From Candidatus Baldrarchaeum yapensis (GTDB lineage Archaea > Asgardarchaeota > Baldrarchaeia > Baldrarchaeales > Baldrarchaeaceae), in NCBI GenBank assembly GCA_016840465.1, contig JAEOSH010000049.1, positions 1 through 17,475 of the forward strand: a DNA stretch of 17,475 nt, in the 5' to 3' direction. The notes below the pieces were generated by a model, which ran no database searches, was not told where the DNA came from, and saw only the letters and a program-made list of their open reading frames with translations. The position numbers and the translations under genes were made by a program. How positions within the stretch are numbered: position 1 is the first letter of the stretch; each line of letters opens with the position of its first letter. Below are positions 1,973 through 17,475 of this stretch, piece by piece.

Positions 1973-2062
1973 TGTAAACTCCCTTAGAACGTTATTTGGA
2001 GATATATGTAAAAAAGTGTGAAGTTGTTCGATGGCACGATATTGTTACTGCGTCCGGGAATC

Positions 2063-2479
2063 TTAAACTTTCTGCTTTAAAAGTTCTTTTATGTAGTTGG
2101 CATATGCCTCTGCATTCATAAGGTTCTTAAGTTCCTCATCGAGGTTCGTCGCCTCAACTACTATCATCCATCCCTCTCCATAAGGGTCGTTATTCACGAG
2201 ATCGGGTTCATCTTCGAGCGATGCATTTACTTCGATCACCTTGCCCGATATTGGAGATATAAGTTCAGCGACTGTTTTAACGGATTCTATTTCACCGAAT
2301 TTCTCGAACTGCTTGACCTCAGTGCCAACCTCTGGTAATGAGACAAATGCTATGTCTCTTAGCTCTTTTTGTGCATAATCGGTAATTCCTACTCTTACCT
2401 TCCCATCTTCAACCTTTGCCCAGAGGTGGTCCTTGCTATAATACAAATCTTCCGGGACCTCGTAGTCGTCTACCTTCAT
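2063..2479 (-). CDS. gcvH: Glycine cleavage system H protein (lipoyl carrier)
   Basis: YSKDHLW, VGITDYAQKELRDI, lipoylation motif GEIESVKTV, SPISGKVIEVN, VNNDPYGEGW; SD GAGG upstream. Confidence 0.96.
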   Translation of the reverse strand: MKVDDYEVPEDLYYSKDHLWAKVEDGKVRVGITDYAQKELRDIAFVSLPEVGTEVKQFEKFGEIESVKTVAELISPISGKVIEVNASLEDEPDLVNNDPYGEGWMIVVEATNLDEELKNLMNAEAYANYIKELLKQKV

Positions 2480-2700
2480 ATAACCGCCTCACATGTATTC
2501 TGTCATTGGCACATACATCTCTCCTATTTATCAGTGTCGCCCACCAGAACAGAAGTCGGCATCCCTCATCCAAATATCTCACTCTATAAACCCGATAAAA
2601 ATTCTAGATTTTGACACCAGTTTCTCTAATTGTGCTTAACAAATAGTTATATAGGTGAAATTGAGATATTGAAATTCGTAACTCTTGCTTGCTGATCACC

Positions 2701-3669
2701 TTATGGGTCTCTTATGCCTTCCTCAGTTATCACAAACACTACCTCTCCTTCTGGCAGATAGGGACTATCGACCAATCGGCATATTCTCCTATTGTCCTTA
2801 GCTCTACGTAGATAGAGGCGTGTCTGAGGGACGTGCGCAAGCACATGACCTCCCACGGGCTCCGTTGGATCCCCGAAGTAAACATCTGGTCTCGCCATGA
2901 CTTGATTTGTCACGAAGACTGCAAGGTTGGCAACATCTGCAAGTCTTTGTAACATGTGAAGATGTCTGTTTAATTTCTGTTGACGCTCAGCGAGCATTTC
3001 ACGCCCAGGATACTCTGCACGAAAGTGTGAAGTTAGAGAATCTATAACAAGGAGCCTCACATTTTCATCTTCGACAACCTCCTGTGCTTGTTGTACTAGC
3101 AACATCTGATGATCAGAATTGTAGGCACGCGCGTAGATTATGTTCTTTAATGCAGTTTTTGGCTCCAATCCGATCGCTTGCGCCATCTGACATATTCTCT
3201 CCGGTCTAAACGTTCCCTCAGTATCTATGTAGATGGCTTTTCCGGATAGCCCTCCTTTTTCTGGTGGAAGTTGTACATTTACTGCAAGTTGATGCGCCAA
3301 TTGAGTCTTCCCGCTCCTAAAAGCTCCAAAAACTTCGGTGATAGCCTGAGTTTCTATACCCCCTGCCAGCAACTTATCTAAGTTCCTAGATCCAGTCGTT
3401 ATCCTTCCGACCTTCATTCTCTTCTCATATACAACATCTGCTGTTTCAAACCCGAGATCGAGTGCTTCACGGGCTGCTTCTATGATTTTCCGCGCAGCAT
3501 TTTCACCGATGTCCGCGGCGTTTGCCAATTCCGCTGGTGTGGCTACTGCTATCGAGATAATGTTCTTATAGCCCGCTTCCATCAGTTTTTTTGCGATTGC
3601 GGGGCCGACACCAGGCAGATCCATCAATTCTTTAGGTTTTCCTTTTTTCTTGTGTGAAATATTTGACAC
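2701..3669 (-). CDS. radA: DNA repair and recombination protein RadA
   Basis: N-terminal HhH ([12 protein letters not shown]), [18 protein letters not shown], Walker [46 protein letters not shown]; GTG start. Confidence 0.97.
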
Positions 3670-3735
3670 CCCAATTACAGTTGTTCTAAATACTTTTGTC
3701 TAAATTTGTCATTTTAAAGTAGAGTATTTAAGTTT

Positions 3736-3748
3736 TTAAAATGAGGGA
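3736..3748 (+). promoter_or_regulatory. TTAAAATGAGGGA motif, TATA-like, copy 1 (identical copy at 12588-12600)
   Basis: Exact 13-nt match to 12588-12600. Both copies lie in divergent intergenic regions 33-36 nt before a + strand start codon. Confidence 0.35.
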
Positions 3749-3784
3749 TTATAGTCTGATCAGTAGCGATGCGGGTGACCCCTA

Positions 3785-4198
3785 GTGTCACTTAAGATAA
3801 GGGCGATGAGACTGAAAAGGAGCATAAAAATGTTGCCAAAAAAAATTAAGATTCTCTTTAGGAAAATCCCCTTGAACATGGTAATCGCATACGGCTCTCT
3901 CATAACAACTTTGGTTCTAATCGCTGGGACCATCTATGCAGCCTTAAATGCAAATACTTTCTTCAGGGGGTTGTTATACCCAAGTATAAATGGGGAATTT
4001 GCAGCTGAGGCAATTGCAGCCACGTTTTTGATAATCTTGGGAATTTCGGGACTTGAACTTTTAAGAAGATGCGCAGCCCACATATATAGTCCCATGTATG
4101 CCAGAACTCTAGTCATGATAGGAATTATTCTCATCCTGATAGCGTTTTTCGGACTTGAATGGTTATTGTTCGCAAAAGCACCTTATATCTTCAAGTAA
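3785..4198 (+). CDS. Hypothetical membrane protein (about 3 transmembrane helices, basic N-terminus)
   Basis: 137-aa ORF filling the gap between divergent radA and convergent carS; three long hydrophobic stretches; no family recognised; start uncertain. Confidence 0.6.
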   Translation: MSLKIRAMRLKRSIKMLPKKIKILFRKIPLNMVIAYGSLITTLVLIAGTIYAALNANTFFRGLLYPSINGEFAAEAIAATFLIILGISGLELLRRCAAHIYSPMYARTLVMIGIILILIAFFGLEWLLFAKAPYIFK

Positions 4199-4202
4199 CG
4201 TA

Positions 4203-4811
4203 CTACCATGGGACATTCTTTAGACCAAGAATGTATCCCAGAGCATTCGTTAGTAAATGAATAATTAGCGTCACCACGAGAAGTATTGTCACGCATATAA
4301 ATGGTACTGTGAAAACAAATGACGTAAATAACAATGCACCGATAAGAAAGTCCAATTGATCCAGTAGTGGGGCAGGTGCACCTCTCTCGAGGCCAAGTCG
4401 TCTTTTAATGAAAGATCCTATGAGATCCCCTACCATTGCACCCATGGGTAAGAGTATTGCTATAATAAAATTCGTCCTGAGTAACGAACGCTGATATGGT
4501 AATAAAGTAACATGCTGTTCTATGAGTTTCTCTAGGGTGGGATTTACGAACACCTGTAAGAGGCCCACCAAGAATCCGCAAAATATTCCGGATATAAATC
4601 CCCTTATCGTTTTTCCATCACCAAATATTCTTCTTCCATCGAAAAACTTCTTCCCCAAGTCTATCGGCGTCCCTCCTCCAAGAAGTACCGGAGATGCGTT
4701 AGCAACATATGCGGGAAGAATAAACCATAAAGACAACAGTATATCCGTTGTTAATGTCGATTGCACACTCAACACCATCCATGGCAGTGGTCTTTTTACC
4801 ATAATCACCAC
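4203..4811 (-). CDS. carS: CDP-2,3-bis-(O-geranylgeranyl)-sn-glycerol (CDP-archaeol) synthase, UPF0290/DUF46
   Basis: PAYVANASPVLLGGGTPIDLGK..DGRRIFGDGKTIRG, GDLIGSFIKRRLGLERG, LLDQLDF, HLLTN..GY.LGLKNVPW. True start may be ATG 4802 or ATG 4778. Confidence 0.93.
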   Translation of the reverse strand: MVIMVKRPLPWMVLSVQSTLTTDILLSLWFILPAYVANASPVLLGGGTPIDLGKKFFDGRRIFGDGKTIRGFISGIFCGFLVGLLQVFVNPTLEKLIEQHVTLLPYQRSLLRTNFIIAILLPMGAMVGDLIGSFIKRRLGLERGAPAPLLDQLDFLIGALLFTSFVFTVPFICVTILLVVTLIIHLLTNALGYILGLKNVPW

Positions 4812-4816
4812 ACATA

Positions 4817-4824
4817 TTAATTAA
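4817..4824. promoter_or_regulatory. Palindromic TTAATTAA, candidate shared TATA box of divergent carS and ubiX operon
   Basis: Perfect AT palindrome in the 37-nt gap between the longest carS frame and the GTG at 4849, about 25-30 nt upstream of 4849. Confidence 0.4.
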
Positions 4825-4848
4825 CTATACTCATGTGTCCGCTAGGAA

Positions 4849-5265
4849 GTGGTGACATTTTCTGTGCGAGAACCATTACTGATAAAGAAAACCATTAGTG
4901 ATGTAAAGCATAGCGTATATGGACTACTTTTAACGCTAGATAACGGAGTATTGCTCTTAATTGGAGATTCTGGGTACAAACTTGGGGCCATCAGTATAGC
5001 TACTCCAATGCTGGGGGTTCCCGAGATGGGAGTAACATCATCTCTAATTTTTCCGTCACGAGATACTAGGGCAAATGTGCTGTCAAGGATACTCTCAGAA
5101 AGATGCGCACGCGCCCTAGGAATTCCATGCATGGCCATTGTTAATATAAAATTGCCGGATCATAGAGATCTTCAAAAGTTAATAATAAAATTGCTCGACC
5201 AACTAATATCCGAGGCAAAGAAGGTGCTTAAACATGAGAGTAGTAGTTGCAATGACCGGCTGTAG
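4849..5265 (+). CDS. Small protein of PAC4 (proteasome assembly chaperone 4)/LpdD-like type, tentative
   Basis: 138 aa; beta-rich N-half (LLLTLDNGVLLLIG, LGAISIATP), then helix NVLSRILSERCARALGIPCMAIVNI, resembling my recollection of PAC4/LpdD proteins; overlaps the ubiX start. Confidence 0.55.
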   Translation: MVTFSVREPLLIKKTISDVKHSVYGLLLTLDNGVLLLIGDSGYKLGAISIATPMLGVPEMGVTSSLIFPSRDTRANVLSRILSERCARALGIPCMAIVNIKLPDHRDLQKLIIKLLDQLISEAKKVLKHESSSCNDRL

Positions 5266-5794
5266 TGGAATCATATATGGTGTGAGACTACTTGAGACCC
5301 TTAAACAGGTGGATGGCATTATAACTTACCTTATAATATCAGACACTGCAAAGAAAATACTGAAACTCGAAACGCAATATTCCTTAGAAGATCTCAGAAA
5401 GATCTCATATGCGATTTTTTCGGAAGACGATATGATGGCCCCGCTTGCAAGTAGCTCCTTTAATATTGATGCTATGGTCATCGTCCCTTGTAGCCTAAAA
5501 ACGCTTTCCGCTTTAGCTTATGGTCTTTCACAAAACTTAATTGTAAGATGTGCTGATAATGTTTTGAGAACGAGAAAAAAATTGGTATTGGTTCCGAGAG
5601 AGACTCCTCTATCCGATATTCACTTAATAAATATGCTAAAACTTTTCAGGCGCGGAGCAATAATCCTTCCTGCGATGCCAGCTTTTTATCATAATCCTAG
5701 GACGATCGCAGATTTAATAGATTTCGTCGTTGGAAAGATTTTGGACGCTTTAAACATAAGATTGAATGTTTACACAAAATGGGGGACCATTTAA
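5234..5794 (+). CDS. ubiX: Flavin prenyltransferase UbiX
   Basis: VVVAMTGCSG..YG.RLL, MAPLASSS, VPCSLKTL, NLIVRCAD, KLVLVPRETPLS.IHL.NM, PAMPAFYHNP; SD AGGTG. Confidence 0.96.
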   Translation: MRVVVAMTGCSGIIYGVRLLETLKQVDGIITYLIISDTAKKILKLETQYSLEDLRKISYAIFSEDDMMAPLASSSFNIDAMVIVPCSLKTLSALAYGLSQNLIVRCADNVLRTRKKLVLVPRETPLSDIHLINMLKLFRRGAIILPAMPAFYHNPRTIADLIDFVVGKILDALNIRLNVYTKWGTI

Positions 5795-7107
5795 TGAGTT
5801 TAAGAGATTTTCTCGATTCATTGATTCCCACCAGCGTCAAAGTTATCGAGGAGGAGTTAGATGTAAAATTCGAGATTGCATATGTAATCAAAAAATTCGA
5901 GAGAGGCCCAACCCTGCTATTTACACGTATTAAAGGCTATCCCGATGCGAAAATAGTTTCAAACCTTTTCTTTAGCAGGGATAGTGTTCGAAAATGCCTC
6001 AACGTTAGTAGTTACACCGAAGTCTACGAGAAGATTCTATATGCAATTAGAAATCCATCACCCCCGCAGGAGGCATCTGATGCTCCTGTCTTGCAGGTCT
6101 CTCGGTCCCCAAATCTGCATGATCTCCCAGTACTCACATATTATGCACGAGATCCTGGACCTTATGTGACATCCGCTATTGTAATTGCACAAAATCGAGA
6201 AGGATCCATTAAAAACGCATCTGTGCATAGATTATTATTAAAAGATAAGCAACATTTCGTCATACGCATAGTCCCGCGTCATTTGTATACCATTCTTAAA
6301 GAATTCCACGAAAAAAACGAACCTCTCCCAGTAGCAATAGTAATAGGGGTGCATCCCCTATTACTATTATCTGCCGCATCTCCAGCCCCATTTGGAGTTT
6401 TTGAACTCCATGTCGCAAATACGCTGTTGAATGGAAGGTTAAGGACCATAAGTTCGCCGATATTTGGTATAGAAGTACCTGCTGATGCTGAATATTTAAT
6501 AGAAGGGGAAATTTTGCCTGAAGAGGCCGATGAGGGACCGTTTGTTGATATCACTGGAACATATGATGTTATGAGGAAACAACCCCTCGTAAGAGTAAAA
6601 AGGATATACCACAGGAAGCATCCGATCTTCCATGCAATTCTGCCAGCAGGCGCCGAACATAGGATATTCATGGGATTACCCATGGAGGCAAAAATTTGGG
6701 ATTATGTCCGTCAGTTAGTTCCTCACGTTAGAGGTGTTAATTTGACGGATGGTGGATGCGGGTGGCTACATGCGGTTATATCAATAAGGAAGAACACCGA
6801 TGGCGATGGAAAAAATGTAGCACTCGCCGCATTTGCAGCTCACCCGAGCCTGAAGCATGTAGTGGTAGTTGACGATGATATAAACCCTTATGATATGCGG
6901 GAAGTCGAATGGGCGATTGCAACAAGGTTTAATGCCGAAAGAGACCTAATAATAATAAGGGGGGCTCGTGGGTCGAGTTTAGATCCCACCGCCGATCAAA
7001 GAACACTTACTATTACAAAAATGGCAATCGACGCCACAAGGAGTTTTGATATACCAAAGCATAAGGTGGAAAAGGCCCATATACCAGTACCTAGGAAAGA
7101 GCGGTGA
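5794..7107 (+). CDS. ubiD: UbiD-family prFMN-dependent decarboxylase, probably anhydromevalonate phosphate decarboxylase
   Basis: NASVHRL, RIVPRHLY, EGPFVDITGTYD, KHVVVVDDDINP, EVEWAIATRF, GSSLDP, KMAIDAT. ATG 5794 overlaps the ubiX stop (TAATG); the ORF track starts at 5779. Substrate inferred from linkage to ubiX and aconitase X. Confidence 0.9.
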   Translation: MSLRDFLDSLIPTSVKVIEEELDVKFEIAYVIKKFERGPTLLFTRIKGYPDAKIVSNLFFSRDSVRKCLNVSSYTEVYEKILYAIRNPSPPQEASDAPVLQVSRSPNLHDLPVLTYYARDPGPYVTSAIVIAQNREGSIKNASVHRLLLKDKQHFVIRIVPRHLYTILKEFHEKNEPLPVAIVIGVHPLLLLSAASPAPFGVFELHVANTLLNGRLRTISSPIFGIEVPADAEYLIEGEILPEEADEGPFVDITGTYDVMRKQPLVRVKRIYHRKHPIFHAILPAGAEHRIFMGLPMEAKIWDYVRQLVPHVRGVNLTDGGCGWLHAVISIRKNTDGDGKNVALAAFAAHPSLKHVVVVDDDINPYDMREVEWAIATRFNAERDLIIIRGARGSSLDPTADQRTLTITKMAIDATRSFDIPKHKVEKAHIPVPRKER

Positions 7108-8339
7108 GTTCCATGTTCTTAACAAAGTATGAAGAGAGAGTTTTGGATGGTGAGTTTGGGCCAGCATTACAACTATCAATGAGGATACTAACAAAAATTG
7201 GTGACGCCTTAGGAGCCTCGCGCCTGATAAGAATTTCATCTGCACATGTATCAGGGATTTCGTACAAAAACATTGGCGATGCCGGACTGCAATTTTTAAA
7301 GCATTTGAGAAATCTGGGAGCAAGAGTATCTGTACTTACAACCTCAAACCCGTCGAGTTTTGGTCCCGAAATTTCAAAAATTGTGAAATTACCGGAGGAT
7401 TTTATCGCCAAACAGATGGAAGTACTTAGAATTCTTGAAGAAATGGGGATTCTTGCAACATATTCCTGTACACCATATTACTGCGGTAATGTCCCAAATT
7501 TTTCTGAACATATCGCCTGGGCGGAGTCCTCAGCAGTAGTTTTTGCAAATTCAGTACTCGGTGCAAGAACGAATAGGGAGGGTGGTCCGTCCTCGATTGC
7601 AGCAGCTATTGTTGGAAAGACTCCATTATATGGCCTACATATATGGGAAAACCGTTTACCGACAGTCTTGATAAAAATTACCTGCGACTTGCCAGACGAT
7701 CCCCTATTTTACAGCGCTTTAGGTTATCTCGTGGGATCCTTGGTTAAAAAAGGTGTCCCTTTATTTAGTGGCATAAAGGGGTGTTCGTCCGAGGCTCTTA
7801 GATGCCTTGCAGCTGGTATTGCGACATCTGGAAATATCGATATGTTCCACATAGAGGGTGCCACACCGGAGGCGATTATGCATTCAAATGACGATAGATT
7901 TCGTTTAAATATTGAGGAAAAGATTTCAATAGACCACGAGGAACTGAAGGATATAATAGAAGGGAACATTTCCGAATCACCAGATATTGTCTTTTTGGGA
8001 TGCCCACATTTATCAGCGAGAGAAATTATTTCGCTTCCGAGGATCATGCCCGAAATTTTCGAACAAAAATCTGCTGAAGTCTGGATTTGTACATCTAAAT
8101 GCCAGAAATCGATTCTTCCGGCGGGTTTTTTCCAACGGTTATGTTCTATGTACAAAAATGTAAAGGTATTCACTGACATGTGCCTAGTCGTATTTCCGGT
8201 GGAGTTCCTCGAGTGCAAGAGTATAGCTACGAATTCTTTTAAGGCATACTACTATTTGAGAAACACTAGTGAAAAGGAGATAGGAATATTCAGACCATAT
8301 CGCCACAAAAGCTATTACAACAACCACACGCGCTTATAA
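7104..8339 (+). CDS. Aconitase X catalytic (large) subunit, DUF521; probable phosphomevalonate dehydratase large subunit
   Basis: AHVSGISYKNIGDAG, YSCTPYY, AWAESSAVVFANSVLGARTNREGGPS.IAAAIVGKTP.YGLH, FHIEGATPE, FLGCPH, CLVVFP (three candidate Fe-S cysteines); GTGA overlap with the ubiD stop. Confidence 0.92.
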   Translation: MSSMFLTKYEERVLDGEFGPALQLSMRILTKIGDALGASRLIRISSAHVSGISYKNIGDAGLQFLKHLRNLGARVSVLTTSNPSSFGPEISKIVKLPEDFIAKQMEVLRILEEMGILATYSCTPYYCGNVPNFSEHIAWAESSAVVFANSVLGARTNREGGPSSIAAAIVGKTPLYGLHIWENRLPTVLIKITCDLPDDPLFYSALGYLVGSLVKKGVPLFSGIKGCSSEALRCLAAGIATSGNIDMFHIEGATPEAIMHSNDDRFRLNIEEKISIDHEELKDIIEGNISESPDIVFLGCPHLSAREIISLPRIMPEIFEQKSAEVWICTSKCQKSILPAGFFQRLCSMYKNVKVFTDMCLVVFPVEFLECKSIATNSFKAYYYLRNTSEKEIGIFRPYRHKSYYNNHTRL

Positions 8340-8425
8340 CAAAGTTTTTAGCAAAAATTTCGGGTATAATAGAGGTGAGAGGCTGGCAAAAAAGGCCAAG
8401 AATAACTCACGGAGAGGAGCTTTAA

Positions 8426-9694
8426 ATGCCAAAAAAACAGTACTGGAGTTTCATAAAGGATCCGCTCTATGGATACATACATATTACGGACTTTGAGAGG
8501 GAGCTAATAGATACTCGCGTCGTGCAAAGGCTGAGAAGAATAAAACAACTAGCAGGCGCTGAATATGTATATCCGGGTGCAAATCATACGAGATTTGAGC
8601 ATTCGATAGGAGTAATGTATTTGGCGGGTGTACTTGCGGAAAGCTTACCGGTAGAACTCTCTGACGACGAAATATGTATGGTCAAGATCGCAGGCCTGCT
8701 TCATGACGTTGGACATGGTCCCTTCTCTCATCTCTTCGAATCTATTTCAACAAAATACTTAGGGAAAACTCACGAGAGTTTCACACAATGGCTAATCAGG
8801 GAGACCGAAATTGCCGATATATTGTCAAATGGGGGCTTCTCGCCGCAGGAAATAAGTGATCTTGCCGTTGGTAAGTATGAGAGAAAGGGAAAAAGATTCC
8901 TGGGACAGATAATTTCGAGTGCAATAGATGTTGATAAAATGGATTTCGTGCCAAGAGACTCCTACCATACTGGTGCAGGATATGGAAATGTAGATGTTTT
9001 TCGACTCATTTACACTATGGATGTTCTGGATAACAATTTAGCAGTAGATATGACCGCAATATCCGCGCTTGAAACATTCATCCTTGCACGCGTTGAATCC
9101 TTCCGCTCAATATACTTTCATAAAGTCGCACGTGCCGCACAGATAATGATTGCACTTGCTATGGAAAGGGCTAAAGAAGATTATCCCATCCTCGTGGGGT
9201 TCAAGTCGCCAGACGAGTTCCTCGAACTCGACGATTATAGCGTATGGGCAATGCTGAAGTCTTCGAAAAAGTCCGAAGAAATCTTAAGGAAGCTTGAAAG
9301 GAGAGATTTACTTAAAGTTGCTTACTCAAAAACTTTTTATGTGAAGGATCAGTTCATCCAGAACCTATTTATCAACGAAACCATTAGAAGAAATCTCGAA
9401 AACGAAATAGCAGAAACCGCCGGCGTTGATTATGAGGACGTTATTATAGACGTGCCAACAGTTCCGTCGGTCCCTTACGGTCACTCTCTCGGAATCGAAC
9501 CAATGGAAATTCCTGTATTCTCAAGGGGACTAGGAGGCGAAAAAATTCCCGAGAAATTGTCTGAAGTCTCAAATGTCATTACCGCACTCAAAGGGTTTAT
9601 GAACATCATTAGAATTTACACGTGGAAAGACCTCAGAGAAAAGGTTGCCGCTGCAGCAGAAAAAATATTCGGGGATGATCAAAAGACAAAATAA
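8426..9694 (+). CDS. HD-domain phosphohydrolase (SAMHD1/YdhJ-like dNTP triphosphohydrolase family)
   Basis: IKDPLYGYI, QRLRRIKQL, YPGANHTRFEHSIG, LLHDVGHGPFSH, DVDKMDFVPRD, YFHK; SD GGAGAGGAG. Confidence 0.92.
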   Translation: MPKKQYWSFIKDPLYGYIHITDFERELIDTRVVQRLRRIKQLAGAEYVYPGANHTRFEHSIGVMYLAGVLAESLPVELSDDEICMVKIAGLLHDVGHGPFSHLFESISTKYLGKTHESFTQWLIRETEIADILSNGGFSPQEISDLAVGKYERKGKRFLGQIISSAIDVDKMDFVPRDSYHTGAGYGNVDVFRLIYTMDVLDNNLAVDMTAISALETFILARVESFRSIYFHKVARAAQIMIALAMERAKEDYPILVGFKSPDEFLELDDYSVWAMLKSSKKSEEILRKLERRDLLKVAYSKTFYVKDQFIQNLFINETIRRNLENEIAETAGVDYEDVIIDVPTVPSVPYGHSLGIEPMEIPVFSRGLGGEKIPEKLSEVSNVITALKGFMNIIRIYTWKDLREKVAAAAEKIFGDDQKTK

Positions 9695-9726
9695 TACATT
9701 ACAGACCACATGGTGGTTAATTCAAT

Positions 9727-11721
9727 ATGCCGCGGGCGCCATTCTTAGGTGAAGTGAAGCTATTCTGGTGCGAGTATTGTAACGTTCCTTTACTCTCTAG
9801 TAAGTGCAGTAAATGTGGGAGAGAGGGTGTCGGGAACGGAATTATCAAAGTTCCAATAACCCCGCCTGGCGACGTAAGACCTGCCTTTGAATGCGATTTA
9901 AAACTGATAAGATCGATAGTGAACAGAGATTATGGATCTAGAGTCGGGGATAGGGTTGTCCCAGGAGACAAGATAGTTCTACTAAATAGAGCCCCAGACA
10001 TTGATCGTATGGATGAAGTCATCATCGACGGAAAAGTTATAGGAATGATAAGATACGATTTGAAAAGACAAAATTGGGAATTCTTGCCCAAAATATCGGG
10101 TGCAAGAAGATTATACATGTATGGTGCTAGAAAATGGATAAAAATAGATAAAGGCGCAGCAGATGCTATTTTAAATGGTTTAAATCTGCTTATACCCGGA
10201 ATAGTAGATTTGGATCAGAACATTAAGAGAGAGGATAACGTAATCATCGTTAATGAAAGAAGTGAAGTTATTGCAACCGGTAGGTCGAAAATTTCGGCCA
10301 GAGAATTAAAATACCTTGAGAAAGGACTGGCAGTGAAGGTAAGAGAGGCTTCTCCACCTGTCAATGAAAGAATAAATCCCGGAGGACAAACGTGGCATGA
10401 CGTCCTAGAGGCAAATTCCGAATTCTTGGAGAAAGAGGAACAAAAATCGATCTCCCTTATACGTAAAGTTGTTAGAAAATACAAAAAGGACGTCACTGTT
10501 GCATTCAGCGGAGGCAAAGACAGTCTTGCAACATTATTACTAGCGATGAAGGCCCTTGACACATCATTTAAAATACTATATGTTGACACAGGAATTGAGT
10601 TCCCCGAGACCGTCAAATATTCGGAAAAAATATTTGATTTACTTGGTGTAAAGCGGAATGTTCTGCGCAAACATGTGAGTGAAAATGTTTTTTGGAATCT
10701 CACAGAAAAATTTGGCCCACCTGGCAGAGACTTCAGATTTTGTTGCAAAACTAATAAACTTGGACCAATAGCCCAATTGATTTCATCGCACTTCAAAAAT
10801 GGTTGTATAACCTTAATTGGTGTACGAAGGTATGAATCCGAGCGCCGGGCCAGAGATGCAAGTATATGGGAAAACCCTTGGGTTCCGAATCAGATAGCAT
10901 TCTCCCCTATAAGAAATTGGACCGCACTGCACGTGTGGCTATATATATTCCGTGAAGGACTCCCTTACAATCCTCTCTACGAGTTTGGCTTTACTAGACT
11001 CGGATGTTGGCTCTGTCCCGCCATGAGATTAGGAGACATAAGTATAATTAGGGCATCCCATAAAGACCTCTGGGAAAAATGGGAGACTTTCCTAGTTAAT
11101 TGGGCCGATAAGCATGATCTTAACTCGGATTGGCTAAAGTATGGACTTTGGAGATGGAAAAATCCACCTGAATCTCTTCTAAGGTCATTATCCATATCTG
11201 ATATCAGTAAGTTGAAAAGTAAGTCATCAAAAAGAACTCCTCTCTCCTGTACGGTAATAATAGGTCCTGAGGGTTGCAATAGGGATATTTTCTCCGCAAA
11301 TGGCATCATATCTCCAGGTAATATTGATCTTCGGATTTTGTCGGTATATTTAACGCCATTAGGTCATGTATACTTATCAAATAAGTTAAATGTGATAAGA
11401 TTATTGGCAAAGGATGGATCACTTACTTGCTACATTTACGAAGATGGATCCTTTAAGGTAATAAGCAGAAAACAGATGACGATGGACGTCTTTGCCAAAA
11501 AGGTAAGGTCCTTCGTGAAGCAACTGCTTTTGACAATTTTGAGGGCCAAAAACTGCACAAAATGTGGAATCTGTTCGTCAAAATGCCCCGAGAAGGCAAT
11601 AACAATTTTTAATGGAAAATTTATGATAAATTCGAATTTATGCAAGCATTGTGGCCTCTGTATTCAAAATTGTCCCGTTAATTTGTTGCAGGACAACCTA
11701 TTAGTCAGTTTTGTGCAGTAA
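9727..11721 (+). CDS. PAPS-reductase-family protein with N-terminal Zn-ribbon/PUA domain and C-terminal 2x[4Fe-4S] ferredoxin
   Basis: WCEYC..CSKC, PUA-like WIKIDKGAADAILNGLNLLIPGI, PP-loop AFSGGKDS, FCCKTNK, GVRRYES.RR, RLGCWLCP, CTKCGICSSKCP and CKHCGLCIQNCP. Confidence 0.9.
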   Translation: MPRAPFLGEVKLFWCEYCNVPLLSSKCSKCGREGVGNGIIKVPITPPGDVRPAFECDLKLIRSIVNRDYGSRVGDRVVPGDKIVLLNRAPDIDRMDEVIIDGKVIGMIRYDLKRQNWEFLPKISGARRLYMYGARKWIKIDKGAADAILNGLNLLIPGIVDLDQNIKREDNVIIVNERSEVIATGRSKISARELKYLEKGLAVKVREASPPVNERINPGGQTWHDVLEANSEFLEKEEQKSISLIRKVVRKYKKDVTVAFSGGKDSLATLLLAMKALDTSFKILYVDTGIEFPETVKYSEKIFDLLGVKRNVLRKHVSENVFWNLTEKFGPPGRDFRFCCKTNKLGPIAQLISSHFKNGCITLIGVRRYESERRARDASIWENPWVPNQIAFSPIRNWTALHVWLYIFREGLPYNPLYEFGFTRLGCWLCPAMRLGDISIIRASHKDLWEKWETFLVNWADKHDLNSDWLKYGLWRWKNPPESLLRSLSISDISKLKSKSSKRTPLSCTVIIGPEGCNRDIFSANGIISPGNIDLRILSVYLTPLGHVYLSNKLNVIRLLAKDGSLTCYIYEDGSFKVISRKQMTMDVFAKKVRSFVKQLLLTILRAKNCTKCGICSSKCPEKAITIFNGKFMINSNLCKHCGLCIQNCPVNLLQDNLLVSFVQ

Positions 11722-11740
11722 TAGATTCGCCTTCACTTAT

Positions 11741-12148
11741 TTACTCGGATCCTGTCTGCGCTTTTATTTCTGATAGTATCTCCTTCCGCAACTTTGCCAC
11801 TTGATGTATATCTATGGGTTCCGCCTCCTTTATTACCGTCTTTAACTGTATCACATTCCCCACCGCGCTTATATCTTCACTATCAACGGGAAACTCTATG
11901 TCTAGGCCCTTAACTATAAGCTCTACTTTGAGGTCCGGAAGCTTTAATTTGACACTCCTAACAACACCCACACGCCTCGCGAGTCCATCTATTACCTCCT
12001 TCCCAATTATGTGACCCGGTACCCTCAACTCGTAGAGCTCTACTTCTATCGTTGGTAGTATTTCGAGATCCTTCTCCATACTTGACACCTCTTTAATACT
12101 TTTTCGTAAAGCTTTAAAAGAATAGTAATCTTCGAATAATACTCGCAT
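11741..12148 (-). CDS. PRC-barrel domain protein
   Basis: Central segment IIGKEVIDGLARRVGVVRSVKL...FPVDSEDISAVGNVIQLK matches the PRC-barrel pattern; SD GTGAT; 8 nt downstream of UPF0148. Confidence 0.7.
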   Translation of the reverse strand: MRVLFEDYYSFKALRKSIKEVSSMEKDLEILPTIEVELYELRVPGHIIGKEVIDGLARRVGVVRSVKLKLPDLKVELIVKGLDIEFPVDSEDISAVGNVIQLKTVIKEAEPIDIHQVAKLRKEILSEIKAQTGSE

Positions 12149-12156
12149 TGATCACG

Positions 12157-12516
12157 TTAACCCTTTATCCTCTTGATTTTCTCAAGTGCTTCGAGAGTTA
12201 TCACGAGTATTCTCATAAGATCGTATAGATTCCCCATGTCGGTCTCCCGCGATATCTTAGAACCCAACTCTTGAATTTTCACTATCAGCGATTCTTCAAG
12301 CGCTGTTAAAACCGACGTTCTGAGGTAAACTGTTGCCTCTTCATCCCGTTTTACTATAACGACCTTCTTTTGACACGAGGGACAATAAACATCCCCACCG
12401 ACCTTAAAAAGAGGACTGTGACATACCGGACAAGTTTCCGATAACATCACTGCCCCCGCTCTCAGCAAATCAACCATCCTTGCCAACTTCTCCGCATCAC
12501 TTCTGTCTTCTGTCAT
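12157..12516 (-). CDS. UPF0148 / SSSCA1-like zinc-ribbon protein
   Basis: MVDLLRAGAVMLSETCPVCHSPLFKVGGDVYCPSC followed by a helical tail; divergent from UPF0147 as is common in archaea. The ORF track starts at GTG 12525; ATG 12516 has SD GTGAT. Confidence 0.88.
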   Translation of the reverse strand: MTEDRSDAEKLARMVDLLRAGAVMLSETCPVCHSPLFKVGGDVYCPSCQKKVVIVKRDEEATVYLRTSVLTALEESLIVKIQELGSKISRETDMGNLYDLMRILVITLEALEKIKRIKG

Positions 12517-12587
12517 GTTAATCACATAATCGCAATTTTTTTCTTAAGAACACTAACTTTCTCTTAATTGTAGGGACACCATCTCCA

Positions 12588-12600
12588 TTAAAATGAGGGA
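12588..12600 (+). promoter_or_regulatory. TTAAAATGAGGGA motif, TATA-like, copy 2, upstream of UPF0147
   Basis: Identical to 3736-3748; 33 nt before ATG 12634. Confidence 0.35.
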
Positions 12601-12633
12601 GATCGCCCGTTTAACAGTTTCGGAGGGAGTAAT

Positions 12634-12926
12634 ATGAGCGAAGAGGTCCAGGAGAAAATTACGCAAGCAACTCAGATACTAAAATCCATTGCGGAAGACA
12701 CGTCGGTGCCACGGAACATACGCAGAGCTGCTAACGAAGCAATGGAGGTAATTCTAAAAGGTGAGGGCACTCCCGCAGTAAGAGCAGCAAACGCAATTTC
12801 AATACTCGATGAGGTCTCCCAAGACCCAAACCGGTAGACTTGAGTCTACCGGGGGTAAACTGTCCACTTCATGCTAGAACAAAAATCTGGAACGTTGTTA
12901 GCATACTGGAAACTATAAAAGATTAA
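12634..12926 (+). CDS. UPF0147 family protein, split by an intron: join(12634..12829,12859..12926), 87 aa
   Basis: Exon 1 gives EDTSVPRNIRRAA..AVRAANAISILDEVSQDPN. Exon 2, in another frame, gives CPLHARTKIWNVVSILETIKD*, the expected family C-terminus (DPNxPxHAR.IWNVVSILET). SD GGAGGGAG; 264 nt spliced. Confidence 0.9.
12830..12858 (+). other. 29-nt bulge-helix-bulge (BHB) intron in a protein-coding gene
   Basis: ACCC(12824-27)/GGGT(12853-56) central helix, AAA bulges at 12828-30 and 12857-59, 10-bp intron stem CCGGTAGACT/AGTCTACCGG. Cutting after the second bulge nucleotide on each strand restores the frame (GAC CCA AAC TGT CCA). Confidence 0.88.
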
Positions 12927-12942
12927 AGCGGGAGTCCCCGGG

Positions 12943-14364
12943 ATGGTAAAAGCTAGAGTTAAAGGTATCTATGCGACTGCACTCTCAAAGCTACTAATCG
13001 ATCACGGATACTCGTTGACACAATGCTCTAAAACCATAGAAAACCGCCTCAAAATCTCTAGTGACTTCGATGCACCAGATGTGGATATAAAGGATAGTGA
13101 TGACCACCATTCCATCATAATTTCCGGAAAGAAAGAACTAGTGGATAATGTCATAAAAATATTAACTGATACCCTTCCTAACCCCATAATTTATAAATCA
13201 AAGGTTGCAGTAAACTCCATTTACCTCGGCGTGGTCGATGAAATCTCCGAGGAGGGCTCTGTCATAGATCTGGGACATGCAAAAGGCGTAATACCCGGCA
13301 AAGAACTGGAATTGGGAAGTAAGGTACTTGTTAGGGTTATTAATCCTGGAATAAAGTATGAGCAAATAACATTAAGCGATGAACTCACGATTCCAGGGAA
13401 ATACGCGATCCTAATACCATCAAACACAATAAAGATAAGCAAAAAGATAAGAAATCCAGATACTAGGCAAACACTTCTCGCATTGGGCCTTTCAATCAAA
13501 CCTCCAAATTGGGGAATCCTCTGGAGAACCGCTGCTAGTGCACAATCCATGCAAACGCTAATAGAGGAAGTGAAGTACCTTAAACAGATCGCTGAGGACA
13601 TATCGTCGGCTTTTGAGAGAGAAAACCCGCCAAAATTACTATTTGAGGGAGAGTATATCGCCATTGTCGAACTGCCGTACGAGTCAAAGTGCGAACTCGA
13701 CAAAATACGTTCTGAGGTCACACCAACAATAAAGGGCCATCATTATTACAAGTCATTAGGAAGATGTACGTCTATGCTCGTCGATATGGCGGAAAATATG
13801 TTATCCTCACTCCCACGAGCAGGAGATTCGATACTACAAACATTTAATAACATAATTAGTGGAATCTACCCTAAAATTGGCGATATCCTCCAAATAACCC
13901 ACATAAAACTCGATGGAAGAGTTTTCGAGTTAACTCCTGGAAGAATCCTAAGCGTCCGAAGATTTAACGGAGAGATTTCCTTTACAATAAAAAGACAGTT
14001 CAGGGAGGGCGGTTACTACGACGGACTTGATGTTCCAAAGGAACGTGGAGACTATGGAATCACAGAGATAAAAGTAGGAAACTGGTATATGAAAACCAGA
14101 TACTTCTCAAGTACTGGAAAACTCAAAGGAGAGTACTATAACATCTCGACAGGAATAGAATTCATCCCACCTAATAAAATTAGATATATCGACTTGGCGG
14201 TTGACCTCGTAAAATACCCTGACGGAACGGTGAAAGTGCTCGATATCGATGAATTGAAAAGAGCCGCAGAAGAGGGTTATATAAGCAAGCGAACATATGA
14301 TAATATCATGGAAAAGGTAAAATACCTAGAAGAACTATTAAAGGAAGGCAAGGAGCCGGGGTAG
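12943..14364 (+). CDS. RNA-binding protein / probable ribonuclease FAU-1 (AU-1; RNase E/G-like region plus DUF402)
   Basis: KARVKGIYATALSKLL, WGILWRTAA, IKGHHYYKS, GGYYDGLDVPKE.GDY.ITE, GEYYNISTGIE, RYIDLAVDLVK.PDG.V.VLD.DEL; SD GGAG. Confidence 0.92.
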   Translation: MVKARVKGIYATALSKLLIDHGYSLTQCSKTIENRLKISSDFDAPDVDIKDSDDHHSIIISGKKELVDNVIKILTDTLPNPIIYKSKVAVNSIYLGVVDEISEEGSVIDLGHAKGVIPGKELELGSKVLVRVINPGIKYEQITLSDELTIPGKYAILIPSNTIKISKKIRNPDTRQTLLALGLSIKPPNWGILWRTAASAQSMQTLIEEVKYLKQIAEDISSAFERENPPKLLFEGEYIAIVELPYESKCELDKIRSEVTPTIKGHHYYKSLGRCTSMLVDMAENMLSSLPRAGDSILQTFNNIISGIYPKIGDILQITHIKLDGRVFELTPGRILSVRRFNGEISFTIKRQFREGGYYDGLDVPKERGDYGITEIKVGNWYMKTRYFSSTGKLKGEYYNISTGIEFIPPNKIRYIDLAVDLVKYPDGTVKVLDIDELKRAAEEGYISKRTYDNIMEKVKYLEELLKEGKEPG

Positions 14365-14378
14365 CCTAGCCAGGCCAA

Positions 14379-14394
14379 AACTGAAAGTGGCTAA
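14379..14394 (+). other. 16-nt non-canonical D-loop tRNA intron (about position 22/23), relaxed BHB
   Basis: GGCC/GGCT helix, AAA and AAG bulges, ACT-GAA-AGT apical stem. Removal gives D arm GCCT-AGCCAGGCCA-AGGC, parallel to the intron-free tRNA-Leu D arm. Confidence 0.8.
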
Positions 14395-14409
14395 GGCGGC
14401 GGACTCGAG

Positions 14410-14437
14410 ATCTGCTCCTCTGGGGCTAGATCGTGAA
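14410..14437 (+). other. 28-nt canonical-position (37/38) tRNA intron
   Basis: Removal restores the 7-nt anticodon loop. Central helix CTCG/CGTG has one U-U mismatch, 3' bulge AAA, intron hairpin ATCT-GCTCC/GGGGC-T-AGAT. Confidence 0.85.
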
Positions 14438-14525
14438 ATCCGCTGGCCCCTCGGGCCGCGCGGGTTCAAATCCCGCCCCCGGCGCCAACTTTTCTATTAT
14501 GCTAGCAATGGTGCCCCATCATTAA

Positions 14526-15407
14526 ATGGCAAGCAAGGGCGATTCTCCAATGCGACGTGAAATAGACGTGATGGTAAAGGAAATAAAAGAAAGATTTGGA
14601 ATTGTCGGAAGAGAAAAAGAATTGAGAATGGCATTAGCCGCAAAACTCTCCGGCAGACACCTCCTCCTCGAAGGAGACGTTGGCGTCGGAAAGACTTTGC
14701 TCGCATCCGCAATTGCACAGTACTTTGGTCAGCCAATGTACAGAGTCGATGGTGATGAAAGATATACGGAGTCGAAACTCGTCGGATACTGGGATCCGCC
14801 ACTTGTAATCGCCTATGGGTATGATTACGAGAAAAGTTTTATACCCGGACCCTTAACCCGCGCAATGCTCGAAGGAGGAATCCTTTTCATAAATGAGTTG
14901 AATAGACTTCCTGAATCAACACAAAATGTTCTATTACCCGCAATGGACGAACGTAAGATAACTATCCCAAAAATAGGCATAATAGAGGCAAAAAATGGTT
15001 TCTTCATAATAGCAACACAAAATCCTCGAGAGTATGTTGGCGTTTCTGCACTCAGTGAGGCCCTCCGCGATAGGTTCGTGTGGATAAAACTCGATTACCA
15101 GAGTGAGGAGGAAGAAAGAGAAATCGTAAGACTGCGAACAGGTTGCACGGATCCTACGATCGTAGAAATAGCCGTTAAAATATGTAGAGCTACAAGAGAA
15201 CATCCTCATATAAGGCGTGGCGCATCGGTGAGAGGTGCAATAGACCTAGTGAGCATCTTGCAAAAATTCGGAAGTTATGAGACGGAGGACTGGATAAATG
15301 CCGCACTGATGGCACTTGGCACAAAAATAGAAATCGATGAGAGCAATGAAAGATCTGTTGAGGACATAATCTCCGAAATTGTGGTATCAATACTGGAAAA
15401 TTTTTGA
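14526..15407 (+). CDS. MoxR-family (CoxD-like) AAA+ ATPase
   Basis: IVGREKEL, Walker A LLLEGDVGVGKT, Walker B variant LFINELNR, LLPAMDER, IIATQNP, LSEALRDRF, GASVRG.IDL; followed by a VWA gene. Confidence 0.92.
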   Translation: MASKGDSPMRREIDVMVKEIKERFGIVGREKELRMALAAKLSGRHLLLEGDVGVGKTLLASAIAQYFGQPMYRVDGDERYTESKLVGYWDPPLVIAYGYDYEKSFIPGPLTRAMLEGGILFINELNRLPESTQNVLLPAMDERKITIPKIGIIEAKNGFFIIATQNPREYVGVSALSEALRDRFVWIKLDYQSEEEEREIVRLRTGCTDPTIVEIAVKICRATREHPHIRRGASVRGAIDLVSILQKFGSYETEDWINAALMALGTKIEIDESNERSVEDIISEIVVSILENF

Positions 15408-16504
15408 ATATCCCCTCAAAAATTAGAAAGAAAACGGAACTTCACGGCACATTTGACAAAAAGATACTCTTTGGAAATATATCCCGTGAAGATCTCCTAG
15501 TTCTAGAAATAAAGAACCCTCGTAGACCGCCGGATTACTACACCAATCTCGCAAAATCATTAGATTATGCAAAAATAAAGGATGTGATTAGAAGGTCGAT
15601 AGAGGAATTTAATGTATCTGCATTCATAGGACTTTGTAGAGCGAATGTCCACGCCGCAATTGAGGCTCTCATAACGGAACCGCCCGCAAACGTAATCCTC
15701 AGAAAAGCAGCTTATGAGTTTCCTCGTCAAACGTATGCACTCTTCTTCCTGTTGAGAAGAAAATTGCCACCGGATATTAAAAAGCGATTCCTAGATGCCA
15801 TAAAATCAGCACTTGTAAGGAAAATCATAGGGATTTCGTTTACAATGGGAAGGAGAGAAAAGAAAAGAACCTATGATTTTCATGAGGAGTTTCATGAGGA
15901 GTTTGATCTTGACGAGACTTTAGAGAGGTTACTGGAGAAACGTATGAGCCCACTCTCATACTCGGACATAGTATGGTTAAAGAGAATGGAAAAGAGAAAT
16001 GCATGCATACTCATGCTTGACACCAGCGGATCTATGTATGGAGAAAAGAACTTAATCGCTGCTATGGCCGCAATAACAGTTGCCTATAGATTAAAGAACT
16101 CGGAACTCGGAATAGTGGCTTTTAACACTTCGGCTATGGTAGTAAAGCACGTAAACTCAAGAGAAAATATCGGAGTCGTTCTTGACAAAATCTTGGAACT
16201 CGAGGCCTCCGGCTACACAAATATCCGTGACGCCCTGCGAAAAGGACTCGCCGAACTCAGAAAATCAAAGGCAAAGAAAAGATGGGGACTGCTTATAACC
16301 GATGGTATGTACAACACTGGCGGAGACCCCAGACCACTCGCCAGAAAATTCCCTAAACTTCACGTCATAGCTCTACCCGCCCAAAACCCCCATGGTCTCA
16401 AGGTGTGTAGAGACCTTGCATACCTCGGTAAGGGAAGATTGGCTATCGCTAAAGGGTTCAGCGATCTAGGACCTCTACTCCTCGACATATTAGGTAAAGT
16501 ATAA
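15404..16504 (+). CDS. VWA-domain (CoxE-like) partner of the MoxR ATPase
   Basis: FDLDETLE, MIDAS motif LMLDTSGSM, GYTNI, LLITDG, GGDP; TTG start overlaps the ATPase stop (TTGA). Confidence 0.9.
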   Translation: MNIPSKIRKKTELHGTFDKKILFGNISREDLLVLEIKNPRRPPDYYTNLAKSLDYAKIKDVIRRSIEEFNVSAFIGLCRANVHAAIEALITEPPANVILRKAAYEFPRQTYALFFLLRRKLPPDIKKRFLDAIKSALVRKIIGISFTMGRREKKRTYDFHEEFHEEFDLDETLERLLEKRMSPLSYSDIVWLKRMEKRNACILMLDTSGSMYGEKNLIAAMAAITVAYRLKNSELGIVAFNTSAMVVKHVNSRENIGVVLDKILELEASGYTNIRDALRKGLAELRKSKAKKRWGLLITDGMYNTGGDPRPLARKFPKLHVIALPAQNPHGLKVCRDLAYLGKGRLAIAKGFSDLGPLLLDILGKV

Positions 16505-16507
16505 AAA
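16500..16507 (+). promoter_or_regulatory. TATA box (TATAAAAA) for tRNA-Leu, overlapping the VWA stop codon
   Basis: Purine-rich GGTAAAG (BRE-like) precedes it; located about 30-37 nt before the tRNA 5' end. Confidence 0.5.
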
Positions 16508-16536
16508 CTCTCACAAAAAACTATAACCTTGAACGT

Positions 16537-16624
16537 GCGGGGGTGGCCGAGCCAGGTCAAAGGCGACGGGCTCAGGACCCGTTGGCGTAGGCCTGCGTGG
16601 GTTCAAATCCCACCCCCCGCACCA
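16537..16624 (+). tRNA. tRNA-Leu(CAG), intron-free, CCA encoded
   Basis: Acceptor GCGGGGG/CCCCCGC, A73, anticodon stem ACGGG/CCCGT with CAG at 16573-16575, variable arm GGC-GTAG-GCC, T arm GTGGG-TTCAAAT-CCCAC. Confidence 0.97.
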
Positions 16625-16738
16625 TATTCTTGAATTATGCGGCATCTTTGAGCTTTATCCATGATGTTACGGATTTCACTCTCAATTTTTACGATGCTAA
16701 TGCCTTAAACTTCCTGTTATTAAATTTTAATTATCTTC

Positions 16739-17475
16739 TAGTACTTCTGAAACTCCTTCTCGGAGAATGCGAAGGGTTTATGCGGCCGCCCGCCGGCACT
16801 TAACAGTATGAGAGACCGACACAACCCCAAAAGGGCGAAACGCGCACCGGCGGGCGACCGAAATACGGCACGGCGGGCGCAGTATTTAAGCGTATCGGCG
16901 GTCGCGGGGGCGCTCCCGCGCTCCATACGCGGCTACAAGATCAATCGAGCGTCTCTCTTGGATCCTGACGAGCGCTACTGTCTCCAATGACTTCGTGACG
17001 TCCGCCGCGCGGCCACTTCATGTGCATCCCGACTCGGTGGCCTTCCAGCTGAGGAAAATAGGAATGCGCGACGCTGAGAGTCTCAACGAGATCCTCGGGG
17101 AGATCGCCGCCAGAGTGCTGCGCCGCAGGAGGGTATTGGTCGCGATAGACACAACCGAAGTTCCCTACTTCGGCACACGCGACGAGTGGGTCCACTACTC
17201 CCCCGCCAAGAAGTGCTACGTGCAGAGGTACGTCGTGGCGGCCGCCATCGACGGCCCACGGAAGATCCCACTCTCCATAAGGCCCATCTCCATGTTCGAC
17301 AGCCGCGCCGACGCCGTGGAGGCGGTGCTTCGTGACATCGAGAAGCTGAGGCTTGAGGTCGAGGGGGTCTACATGGATTGTGGCTTTTTCTCCGTGGAGG
17401 TCATGGAGGTTCTCGCGAGAAGGAACATCCCGTTTGCGATCGCCGCCAGGAGGACGGCGGGCATAAGGAGGGTTC
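16739..17475 (+). mobile_element. ISH3-family (IS4 superfamily) insertion sequence, left part; right end outside window
   Basis: Abrupt GC rise (hand count 37/60 GC at 17101-17160 versus 22/60 at 13441-13500) and a DDE transposase frame. Candidate left end TAGTACTTCTGAAAC at 16739 resembles the CAGTAC.. ends I recall for ISH3 elements; boundary unverified. Confidence 0.75.
16808..17475 (+). pseudogene. ISH3-type DDE transposase, apparently frameshifted near 16951-16960, truncated by window edge
   Basis: A frame open from 16890 to the window end encodes ..HPDSVAFQLRK..VLVAIDTTEVPYFG..GVYMDCGFFSVEV.. (D at 17148, D at 17376). The probable N-terminus is ORF 16808-16990 in another frame. Not in the ORF track. 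Confidence 0.8.

Follow-up and report, generated by a model that had tools for sequence, protein, structure and literature searches.

We analyzed a 17,475-nt stretch of the genome of Candidatus Baldrarchaeum yapensis (contig JAEOSH010000049.1, positions 1 to 17,475 of the forward strand; hereafter the window), with a focus on a 1.85-kb locus on the + strand that carries three predicted splicing substrates of the bulge-helix-bulge (BHB) type. The locus comprises a UPF0147 gene with an mRNA intron, a 16-nt gap, the gene for FAU-1 and an overlapping tRNA-Ser(CGA) gene with two introns, all of them at the places given in a preliminary description of the window. The genome (2.27 Mb, 96% complete) is the sole representative of its family, f1, among the genomes compared. 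The stretch is 100% identical in five other assemblies of the same species, which argues against an assembly error; assemblies from SRR7051323, SRR6823441 and JGI 3300014886 contain this DNA. In an aIF5B tree the genome joins relatives of the same order, including Baldrarchaeota Yap30.bin4.67 (G004), with support of 96/96; f20 is sister to f3 (98/98; f3 records are labeled Odinarchaeia), and f8 is sister to f18 (99/99; records labeled Jordarchaeia/Freyarchaeota). A protein search led to Logan contig L238 from a sister species, whose FAU-1 is 79% identical and which shares 34-51% of synonymous codons; this contig ends inside the tRNA, and the comparison of layout reaches only that far. A metagenome scan gave no close FAU-1 relative.

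UPF0147 is present once in the genome. Exon 1 (12634-12829, +) holds codons 1-65 and the first base of codon 66 and matches positions 2-62 of Pfam PF03685, while exon 2 (12859-12926, +) runs from the remainder of codon 66 to the stop TAA and matches positions 62-81. The 29-nt insert between them (12830-12858, +) breaks the frame and brings an in-frame TAG at 12835-12837, and the unspliced gene would give a product of 67 aa, the open reading frame (ORF) called in public assemblies. The insert has two 3-nt bulges flanking a 4-bp helix, with the cuts after the second bulge base, and the motif is canonical: a central helix ACCC/GGGT, two AAA bulges, a 9-bp inner stem and two exon pairs. Cuts at the standard places yield exactly the reading frame of the homologous protein, and the spliced product of 87 aa is 85% identical, end to end, to intronless homologs from the sister family within the Baldrarchaeia. 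By energy per base the motif ranks third among 641 BHB-like hits genome-wide and it beats the best hit from a codon-shuffled genome, both of which argue against a chance structure. Relative to the sister species, the codon differences in exon 1 are 39 synonymous and 1 non-synonymous; exon 2, read in the spliced frame, differs at 12 codons, with 12 synonymous and 0 non-synonymous changes.

At this position the sister species carries a 31-nt intron with a different loop; the introns of three f20 genomes there are also 31 nt long, with other stems and a compensatory helix change from ACCC/GGGT to ATCC/GGAT. The BHB structure is kept in both despite the new stems and loops and the replacement of C-G by T-A in the helix. 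Four Odinarchaeum (f3) genomes contain a 27-nt, stop-containing insert about eight codons later, which is compatible with a BHB. The codon-66 intron is missing from four sister-family genomes and three further sister-family contigs, where the gene is an 87-aa ORF. Because the inserts measure 27, 29 and 31 nt, exact excision is the sole common route to a full-length UPF0147. By these comparative tests the insert is a real mRNA intron and, we infer, its splicing is needed for the 87-aa protein. Our survey of 400 genomes for UPF0147 introns covered the best 150 of 375 matches, and further introns are possible. Literature searches on the function of UPF0147 yielded nothing useful; one homolog (L031:1560-1820) scores above the cut-off of NCBIfam NF053638, "stationary phase-response protein", a name whose source we could not trace.

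UPF0147 has company. A genome-wide scan added seven BHB inserts, 24-32 nt long, that break the frame of coding genes: aIF5B (C67:54628-54657, -), rpoN (C67:57987-58017, -), pcm (C78:18122-18153, +), a PorC-like gene (C56:106639-106666, -), a radical SAM gene (C66:13809-13837, -), hypD (C67:5975-5998, -) and an FAD oxidoreductase gene (C55:18158-18187, +; all contigs are those of this genome, G000). The scan was strict and eight mRNA introns is a lower bound. The UPF0147, aIF5B and rpoN introns were compared with relatives; the other five rest on motif or Pfam continuity. The aIF5B intron lies at GGI|TQH and the rpoN intron at PVR|CFTC, and both recur at the same sites in 4/4 sister-family genomes as different hairpins of 33-43 nt; f20 aIF5B also has an insert at the same site. 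The radical SAM intron falls inside CxxxCxxC and the hypD intron inside CGTHE, and for pcm, the PorC-like gene and the FAD oxidoreductase the exon halves match consecutive Pfam positions. The cbf5 gene of this genome is uninterrupted. Several of the top BHB hits were discarded: a 24-nt hairpin that keeps the frame of a transporter gene, and candidates in which the long frame merely ends at the hairpin. The genome encodes two EndA paralogs (PF01974) on contigs C56 and C53, one RtcB and aPelota, with the RNase P RNA on contig C59. In two other lineages we noted further inserts: a 29-nt hairpin at a second site, in the P-loop region of aIF5B, in f8 (Jordarchaeia-type; L179-L181), and an in-frame insert of ~24 nt with a TAA stop in f20 rpoN (L203-L205), which differs in site from that of the Baldrarchaeia and which the BHB filter did not resolve.

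UPF0147 is separated from FAU-1 by 16 nt (12927-12942, +), which hold a Shine-Dalgarno (SD)-like GGGAG at 12930-12934 and no T-run; the sister species has a 21-nt gap with AGGAG at a similar place. The SD-like motif sits within a small palindrome at 12930-12938 (GGGAGTCCC; sister species, AGGAGTCCT) that has undergone a compensating change and that might form a very small hairpin or serve as a site for a protein. FAU-1, or RNase W (12943-14364, +; 473 aa), has the Pfam domains RNase_E_G and DUF402, matches the solved FAU-1 structures 8WO8/8RZA with an E value of 1e-91 and also matches PDB 8RZF. It has the RNase W architecture, an RNase E/G-like S1 and 5′-sensor region fused to DUF402, and all ten residues of the published active-site list (H320, K322, R351, D360, T374, Y387, N400, D417, D421 and D434; PMC11602121). 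Domain order and active-site residues are thus common to this protein and the known FAU-1/RNase W enzymes (Ikeda 2017, PMC5627344; Vayssieres 2024, PMC11602121), with ~40% identity to the Thermococcus proteins. Unlike those, the enzyme considered here, a conceptual translation, takes its last two codons and stop from tRNA sequence: the final 10 nt of the gene, including the stop TAG, fall inside tRNA-Ser. The published substrates of FAU-1 are the 5S and 16S rRNA precursors, and pre-5S rRNA is preferred over tRNA (PMC5627344, PMC11602121); a link of FAU-1 to tRNA processing was not found in the literature searched. Of the five near-identical 20-nt windows between the two species, four cluster in FAU-1 codons 163-211 (13429-13574 of the window), and codons 181-210 show 71% third-position identity.

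The pre-tRNA-Ser(CGA) gene (14355-14487, +) includes an encoded CCA and an anticodon at 14406-14408; of the 45 tRNA genes found, no other has a CGA anticodon. Removal of both introns leaves a clean 89-nt tRNA, recognized by ARAGORN in the spliced form; the unspliced gene is called tRNA-Phe or missed. The 10-nt overlap with FAU-1 makes the stop TAG equal to U8-A9-G10 of the tRNA. The 16-nt D-loop intron (14379-14394, +) has a helix GGCC/GGCT that pairs at 4/4 positions, bulges AAA/AAG, a 3-bp stem and no exon helix, and its removal restores a standard D arm (mature D stem 4/4). At this site the sister species also has an intron, of 16 nt, as does the sister family, with 22-23 nt. We rejected a 14-nt placement at 14380-14393, which leaves an oversized D loop, in favor of the 16-nt placement, which fits the relatives. 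The second intron, at 37/38 (14410-14437, +; 28 nt), fails a canonical BHB in both species, with a 3/4 helix, a U-U mismatch and a shifted inner stem, and has a relaxed BHB instead; its position and mature product are standard. Relaxed motifs are of the type handled by the two-subunit EndA (PMC2738675). At 14422-14430 the 37/38 intron holds GGGGCTAGA, the complement of one guide arm of a box C/D RNA encoded on another contig (C51 ~14527-14585, +), whose guides pair with the 37/38 intron (GGGGCUAGA) and the anticodon loop. Both arms pair with pre-tRNA-Ser (-20.7 and -15.5 kcal/mol), and C34 lies opposite the fifth base ahead of box D; the target motif also occurs in the tRNA-Leu(UAA) and tRNA-Leu(CAA) introns. 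The known partner of the 37/38 intron, as predicted from this pairing, acts in trans. Multi-intron tRNA genes of Thermoproteales and Asgard archaea (PMC11291895; bioRxiv 10.64898/2026.10.13.758758) likewise combine D-arm and 37/38 introns, have relaxed motifs and escape annotation, and tRNA-Ser is unusual among them only in overlapping a coding stop. We also observed T-loop introns, up to three or four inserts and genes missed by ARAGORN among the tRNA genes beside UPF0147 or FAU-1 in f20 (L043-L045) and f8 (L259, L262, L263).

The layout bears on how the locus is transcribed. Since FAU-1 ends within the tRNA and its stop is not followed by a T-run before 14490-14493 (+), just behind the CCA, the FAU-1 mRNA would contain the pre-tRNA, and the two genes would almost necessarily share one transcript. 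The T-run is a candidate 3′ end for both long and short transcripts; it is weak (four T), and similar T-rich tails follow most tRNA genes. UPF0147 and FAU-1 are probably also on one transcript, given the 16-nt gap, the conserved SD-like motif, the absence of a T-run and the widespread close neighborhood of the two genes. We therefore consider it likely, in agreement with the preliminary description and with a layout kept in the sister species, that a single precursor carries all three BHB substrates. The tRNA may in addition have a promoter of its own. A matrix built from 34 other tRNA upstream regions places a candidate TFB-recognition element (BRE)/TATA promoter at 14308-14327 (+), inside FAU-1 codons 456-462, with a score of 7.6 at -48 (11.7 in the sister species; leave-one-out median, 8.4). 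This is the best site shared by both species across FAU-1, with 19/20 nt identical, and one of the five near-identical windows mentioned above; we lean toward the view that it is the tRNA-Ser promoter. A scan for sigma-70 promoters and hairpin terminators, a method unsuited to archaea, performed at chance level.

Of the 45 tRNA genes, only this one overlaps a coding stop, and the sister species retains the overlap unchanged. For a reading frame that enters a tRNA, the chance of meeting TAG at positions 8-10 is one in three, so the overlap could rescue a rearrangement that removed an old stop. If RNase P cut a read-through transcript, the FAU-1 mRNA would lose its stop and become a substrate for aPelota, whether or not this has been selected; we found no archaeal case in the literature of tRNA excision removing a coding stop. 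In mitochondrial tRNA punctuation, excision of tRNAs defines the 3′ ends of mRNAs. Unlike there, cleavage here would remove the whole stop, and adding A residues could not complete it. Overlapping genes expressed as one long and one short transcript, as proposed for FAU-1 and tRNA-Ser, are found in the Haloferax volcanii endA-trpS1 operon, which has an internal promoter (PMC7714728).

The preliminary description held that separate start sites and terminators for each gene together with an absence of conserved linkage would undo the proposed unit; our synteny comparison shows that linkage is conserved across many archaea, and the full layout of UPF0147 intron, FAU-1 and overlapping tRNA-Ser is kept in the sister species. 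UPF0147 and FAU-1 are neighbors at short spacing in six Asgard families and the pair spans two phyla: at spacings of 30-168 nt it is intron-free both in 16 loci outside the Asgard archaea (Desulfurococcales, Acidilobaceae, Pyrodictiaceae, Methanomethylicota and others) and in Asgard families f2, f7, f8, f18 and f33. The linked pair carries the intron only in family f1, and by this distribution the linkage is far older than the introns. In f20, which has the same-site intron, FAU-1 lies on another contig and tRNA-Ser(CGA) is ~200 nt downstream of UPF0147 with its own intergenic promoter-like site. No match to FAU-1 was found in the four Odinarchaeum (f3) genomes (93-98% complete), which have their intron at a different site. 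The tRNA side is more mobile. The exact order UPF0147-FAU-1-tRNA-Ser occurs only in the two f1 species; G319 has UPF0147-FAU-1-Leu(TAG)-Ser(CGA) on one strand, with an extra tRNA and no mRNA intron, and the order is otherwise inverted or broken. In f8, a tRNA-Leu(CAG) lies 19-50 nt behind FAU-1, and a pattern search upstream of moxR did not find tRNA-Ser(CGA), which heavy interruption could hide. Relative to the sister family, the block tRNA-Ser-moxR AAA ATPase-VWA-tRNA-Leu(CAG) (14355-16624, +), between FAU-1 and phoU, is inverted, which places the sister-family tRNA-Ser ~4 kb away on the other strand; in the seven sister-family loci, FAU-1 is never directly followed by a tRNA on its own strand. 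The arrangement in f1 is probably derived, since moxR-vwa in the outgroup f8 (Jordarchaeia) is oriented as in the sister family.

Our best explanation, held with moderate confidence, is an old neighborhood (p27 <- UPF0147 -> FAU-1 -> nearby Leu/Ser tRNA) in a lineage whose splicing endonuclease tolerates small BHB introns in many RNAs. By the comparative tests, the three introns exist and their BHB shape is under selection; only exact removal would yield both full UPF0147 and a normal tRNA-Ser. A promoter in the gap between the p27-type gene and UPF0147 would drive a UPF0147-FAU-1 message through the pre-tRNA to the T-run at ~14490. EndA would cut each motif independently, by shape, and RtcB would rejoin the exons, while most mature tRNA-Ser would come from a short transcript started inside FAU-1 and trimmed by RNase P, with the C/D guide, acting in trans, holding the 37/38 intron and directing methylation of C34. 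Where the tRNA folds on the long message, RNase P would cut at 14354/14355 and leave a stop-less FAU-1 mRNA in need of ribosome rescue, as a side effect of the overlap. A rearrangement in f1 would have set tRNA-Ser against FAU-1, and U8-A9-G10 would have been adopted as the stop. FAU-1 would work on rRNA precursors, with no special part in the processing of its own transcript, and the UPF0147 intron would be one of at least eight mRNA introns gained genome-wide regardless of tRNA neighbors.

Several observations weigh against this explanation. Splicing, transcription start sites and read-through are all deduced from sequence. The embedded tRNA-Ser site only approaches the tRNA-promoter median, and its score of 7.6 is reached by 5% of 1211 CDS ends; upstream of UPF0147 the tRNA-trained matrix finds no promoter (best score, 1.5), and near the FAU-1 start it gives 6.8 at 12905 and 9.5 at 12911. 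Only one outgroup class informs the direction of the inversion. Both lineages with a codon-66 intron have tRNA-Ser(CGA) downstream on the same strand, and the overlap has outlasted the divergence to 34-51% identical synonymous codons and could be useful.

Some of these points lend themselves to other readings of the introns and transcripts. The UPF0147 insert might not be spliced at all, leaving a pseudogene, a 67-aa protein such as gene callers annotate, or a product of ribosomal recoding. We regard this as very improbable: the gene is single-copy, its second exon has accumulated exclusively synonymous changes, the 27-, 29- and 31-nt inserts are all BHB-shaped with compensatory changes, and the essential genes aIF5B and rpoN show the same pattern. 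Alternatively, UPF0147 could be monocistronic and FAU-1 transcribed from a promoter in the last codons of UPF0147, in which case no RNA would bear three introns, although the FAU-1 mRNA would still bear both tRNA introns. Transcription from the 6.8-scoring site would begin close to the FAU-1 ATG, and several Asgard families have UPF0147 and FAU-1 unlinked. However, the promoter-like site (12905-12926) is not kept in the sister species, where the SD-like motif is, no T-run separates the genes and their gaps are short across two phyla; we find separate transcripts unlikely. For the origin of the UPF0147 intron, we reject copying from the neighboring tRNA-Ser introns, as alignment scores with either are only 6-9 and no 12-mer of the intron recurs elsewhere in the genome; the other mRNA introns are also dissimilar. 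A more distant donor is the pre-tRNA-Leu(CAA) on another contig (C67:69825-69940, -; also L280), of whose intron/anticodon region the insert at 12830-12858 could be an antisense copy. The two agree at 18/20 positions in antisense, with perfect complementarity of 9 nt, a 2-nt gap and 9 nt, and the score of 29 (null, 17.9 +/- 2.3) was reached in 0/400 hairpin-preserving shuffles. Yet only one of eight introns tested shows a match (corrected p ~0.02), the intron of the sister species does not do so significantly (p 0.19), the f20 introns at the same site are dissimilar, and the match is antisense and extends into exon sequence. The match may be a donor trace or chance, with a Leu(CAA) donor being doubtful; it bears solely on where the intron came from and does not conflict with the best explanation.

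The preliminary description went further and saw in the locus an RNA-processing unit in which mRNA splicing, tRNA splicing and tRNA 5′ maturation act on one precursor, and a possible context for the move of a tRNA intron into an mRNA. A dedicated unit, a role of FAU-1 in tRNA 5′ maturation and such a move at this locus all fare poorly. The linkage predates the introns, the tRNA block is inverted in the sister family and a promoter-like site lies inside FAU-1; the published FAU-1 substrates are rRNA precursors, RNase P RNA is encoded elsewhere, and the box C/D partner of the 37/38 intron acts in trans. The seven other mRNA introns fall outside tRNA-containing units and 0/7 are co-oriented with a nearby tRNA. 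Two of the seven lie within 2 kb of a tRNA start, compared with 5% of the genome (p ~0.04), and we discarded clustering near tRNA genes because the nearest tRNA is on the opposite strand in both cases. We hence give little credence to a dedicated processing unit or an intron cradle. A related view is that the coupling itself has been selected, with tRNA-Ser(CGA) made mainly from the long transcript and EndA, RtcB and RNase P setting the output of UPF0147 and FAU-1, for example by tRNA excision that removes the FAU-1 stop and so limits the ribonuclease. The overlap would indeed make translation termination and tRNA folding exclusive on one molecule, it is unique in the genome and exact in the sister species, and a Leu/Ser tRNA recurs just behind FAU-1 or UPF0147 in f8, f18, f20, f33 and some Thermoproteota. 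Against this, the identity, strand and distance of the tRNA vary between families and none of the seven sister-family loci has one co-oriented directly behind FAU-1; a promoter-like site for the tRNA is conserved; TAG is available at positions 8-10 in every tRNA, so that its adoption as a stop requires no selection; and our literature search gave no tie between FAU-1 and tRNA processing. Selection for such coupling seems improbable to us. It is equally speculative, and improbable, that the tRNA machinery controls protein output here, with EndA/RtcB splicing making UPF0147 and RNase P removing the FAU-1 stop in a one-RNA switch between tRNA and ribonuclease. If true, such a switch would represent a prokaryotic precursor of regulated mRNA splicing of the IRE1/RtcB type, in a genome that routinely splices coding mRNAs.

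In the literature searched, which leaves most subscription journals outside, the archaeal mRNA BHB introns are only those of cbf5, in coding sequence, and of the H. volcanii HVO_1309 5′ untranslated region (PMC2738675, PMC7714728). The cbf5 pre-mRNA intron of Desulfurococcales and Sulfolobales (Watanabe 2002; Yokobori 2009, PMC2738675) is likewise a short BHB insert in coding sequence, and it resembles the UPF0147 intron in its cuts after the second bulge base, variable interior, gain and loss between lineages and hosts with a two-subunit EndA. The differences are a different gene and phylum, at least eight coding genes in a single genome rather than one, and splicing that was shown by cDNA for cbf5, whereas here it is predicted from genomic data. 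HVO_1309 (Schwarz 2020, PMC7714728) shares with UPF0147 the action of EndA on an mRNA, but its intron lies outside coding sequence, whereas that of UPF0147 lies inside and breaks the frame. Recent papers on Asgard introns treat tRNA only, and those on multi-intron tRNA genes do not treat mRNA introns (PMC11291895; bioRxiv 10.64898/2026.10.13.758758).

The UPF0147 intron is thus of the cbf5-like kind and widespread in this genome, and herein lies the main value of the finding: one Asgard genome has at least eight introns in coding genes; two of these interrupt essential genes and are shared by members of an order, and UPF0147 introns occur in three lineages at two different sites. If splicing is confirmed, tRNA-type splicing of mRNAs would be routine in some of the prokaryotes most closely related to eukaryotes, with a bearing on the origin of RtcB-dependent mRNA splicing, and gene calls would be systematically truncated. 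The locus offers a compact 1.85-kb test substrate for mRNA splicing, both tRNA splicing events, their order and the stop-less mRNA; the idea of a processing unit adds little beyond this.

The most constant neighbor of UPF0147 is the divergent zinc-ribbon gene upstream (12157-12525, -; Auto_anti-p27, PRK00420). At the other side of the locus, an ISH3-family DDE transposase (16995-17475, +, to the window end; also at L239:9122-10036) lies just behind tRNA-Leu(CAG), near the right boundary of the inverted block. Elsewhere in the genome, the SRP RNA gene (C56:88281-88740, -; also L222) directly precedes an intron-bearing tRNA-Ser gene on the same strand.

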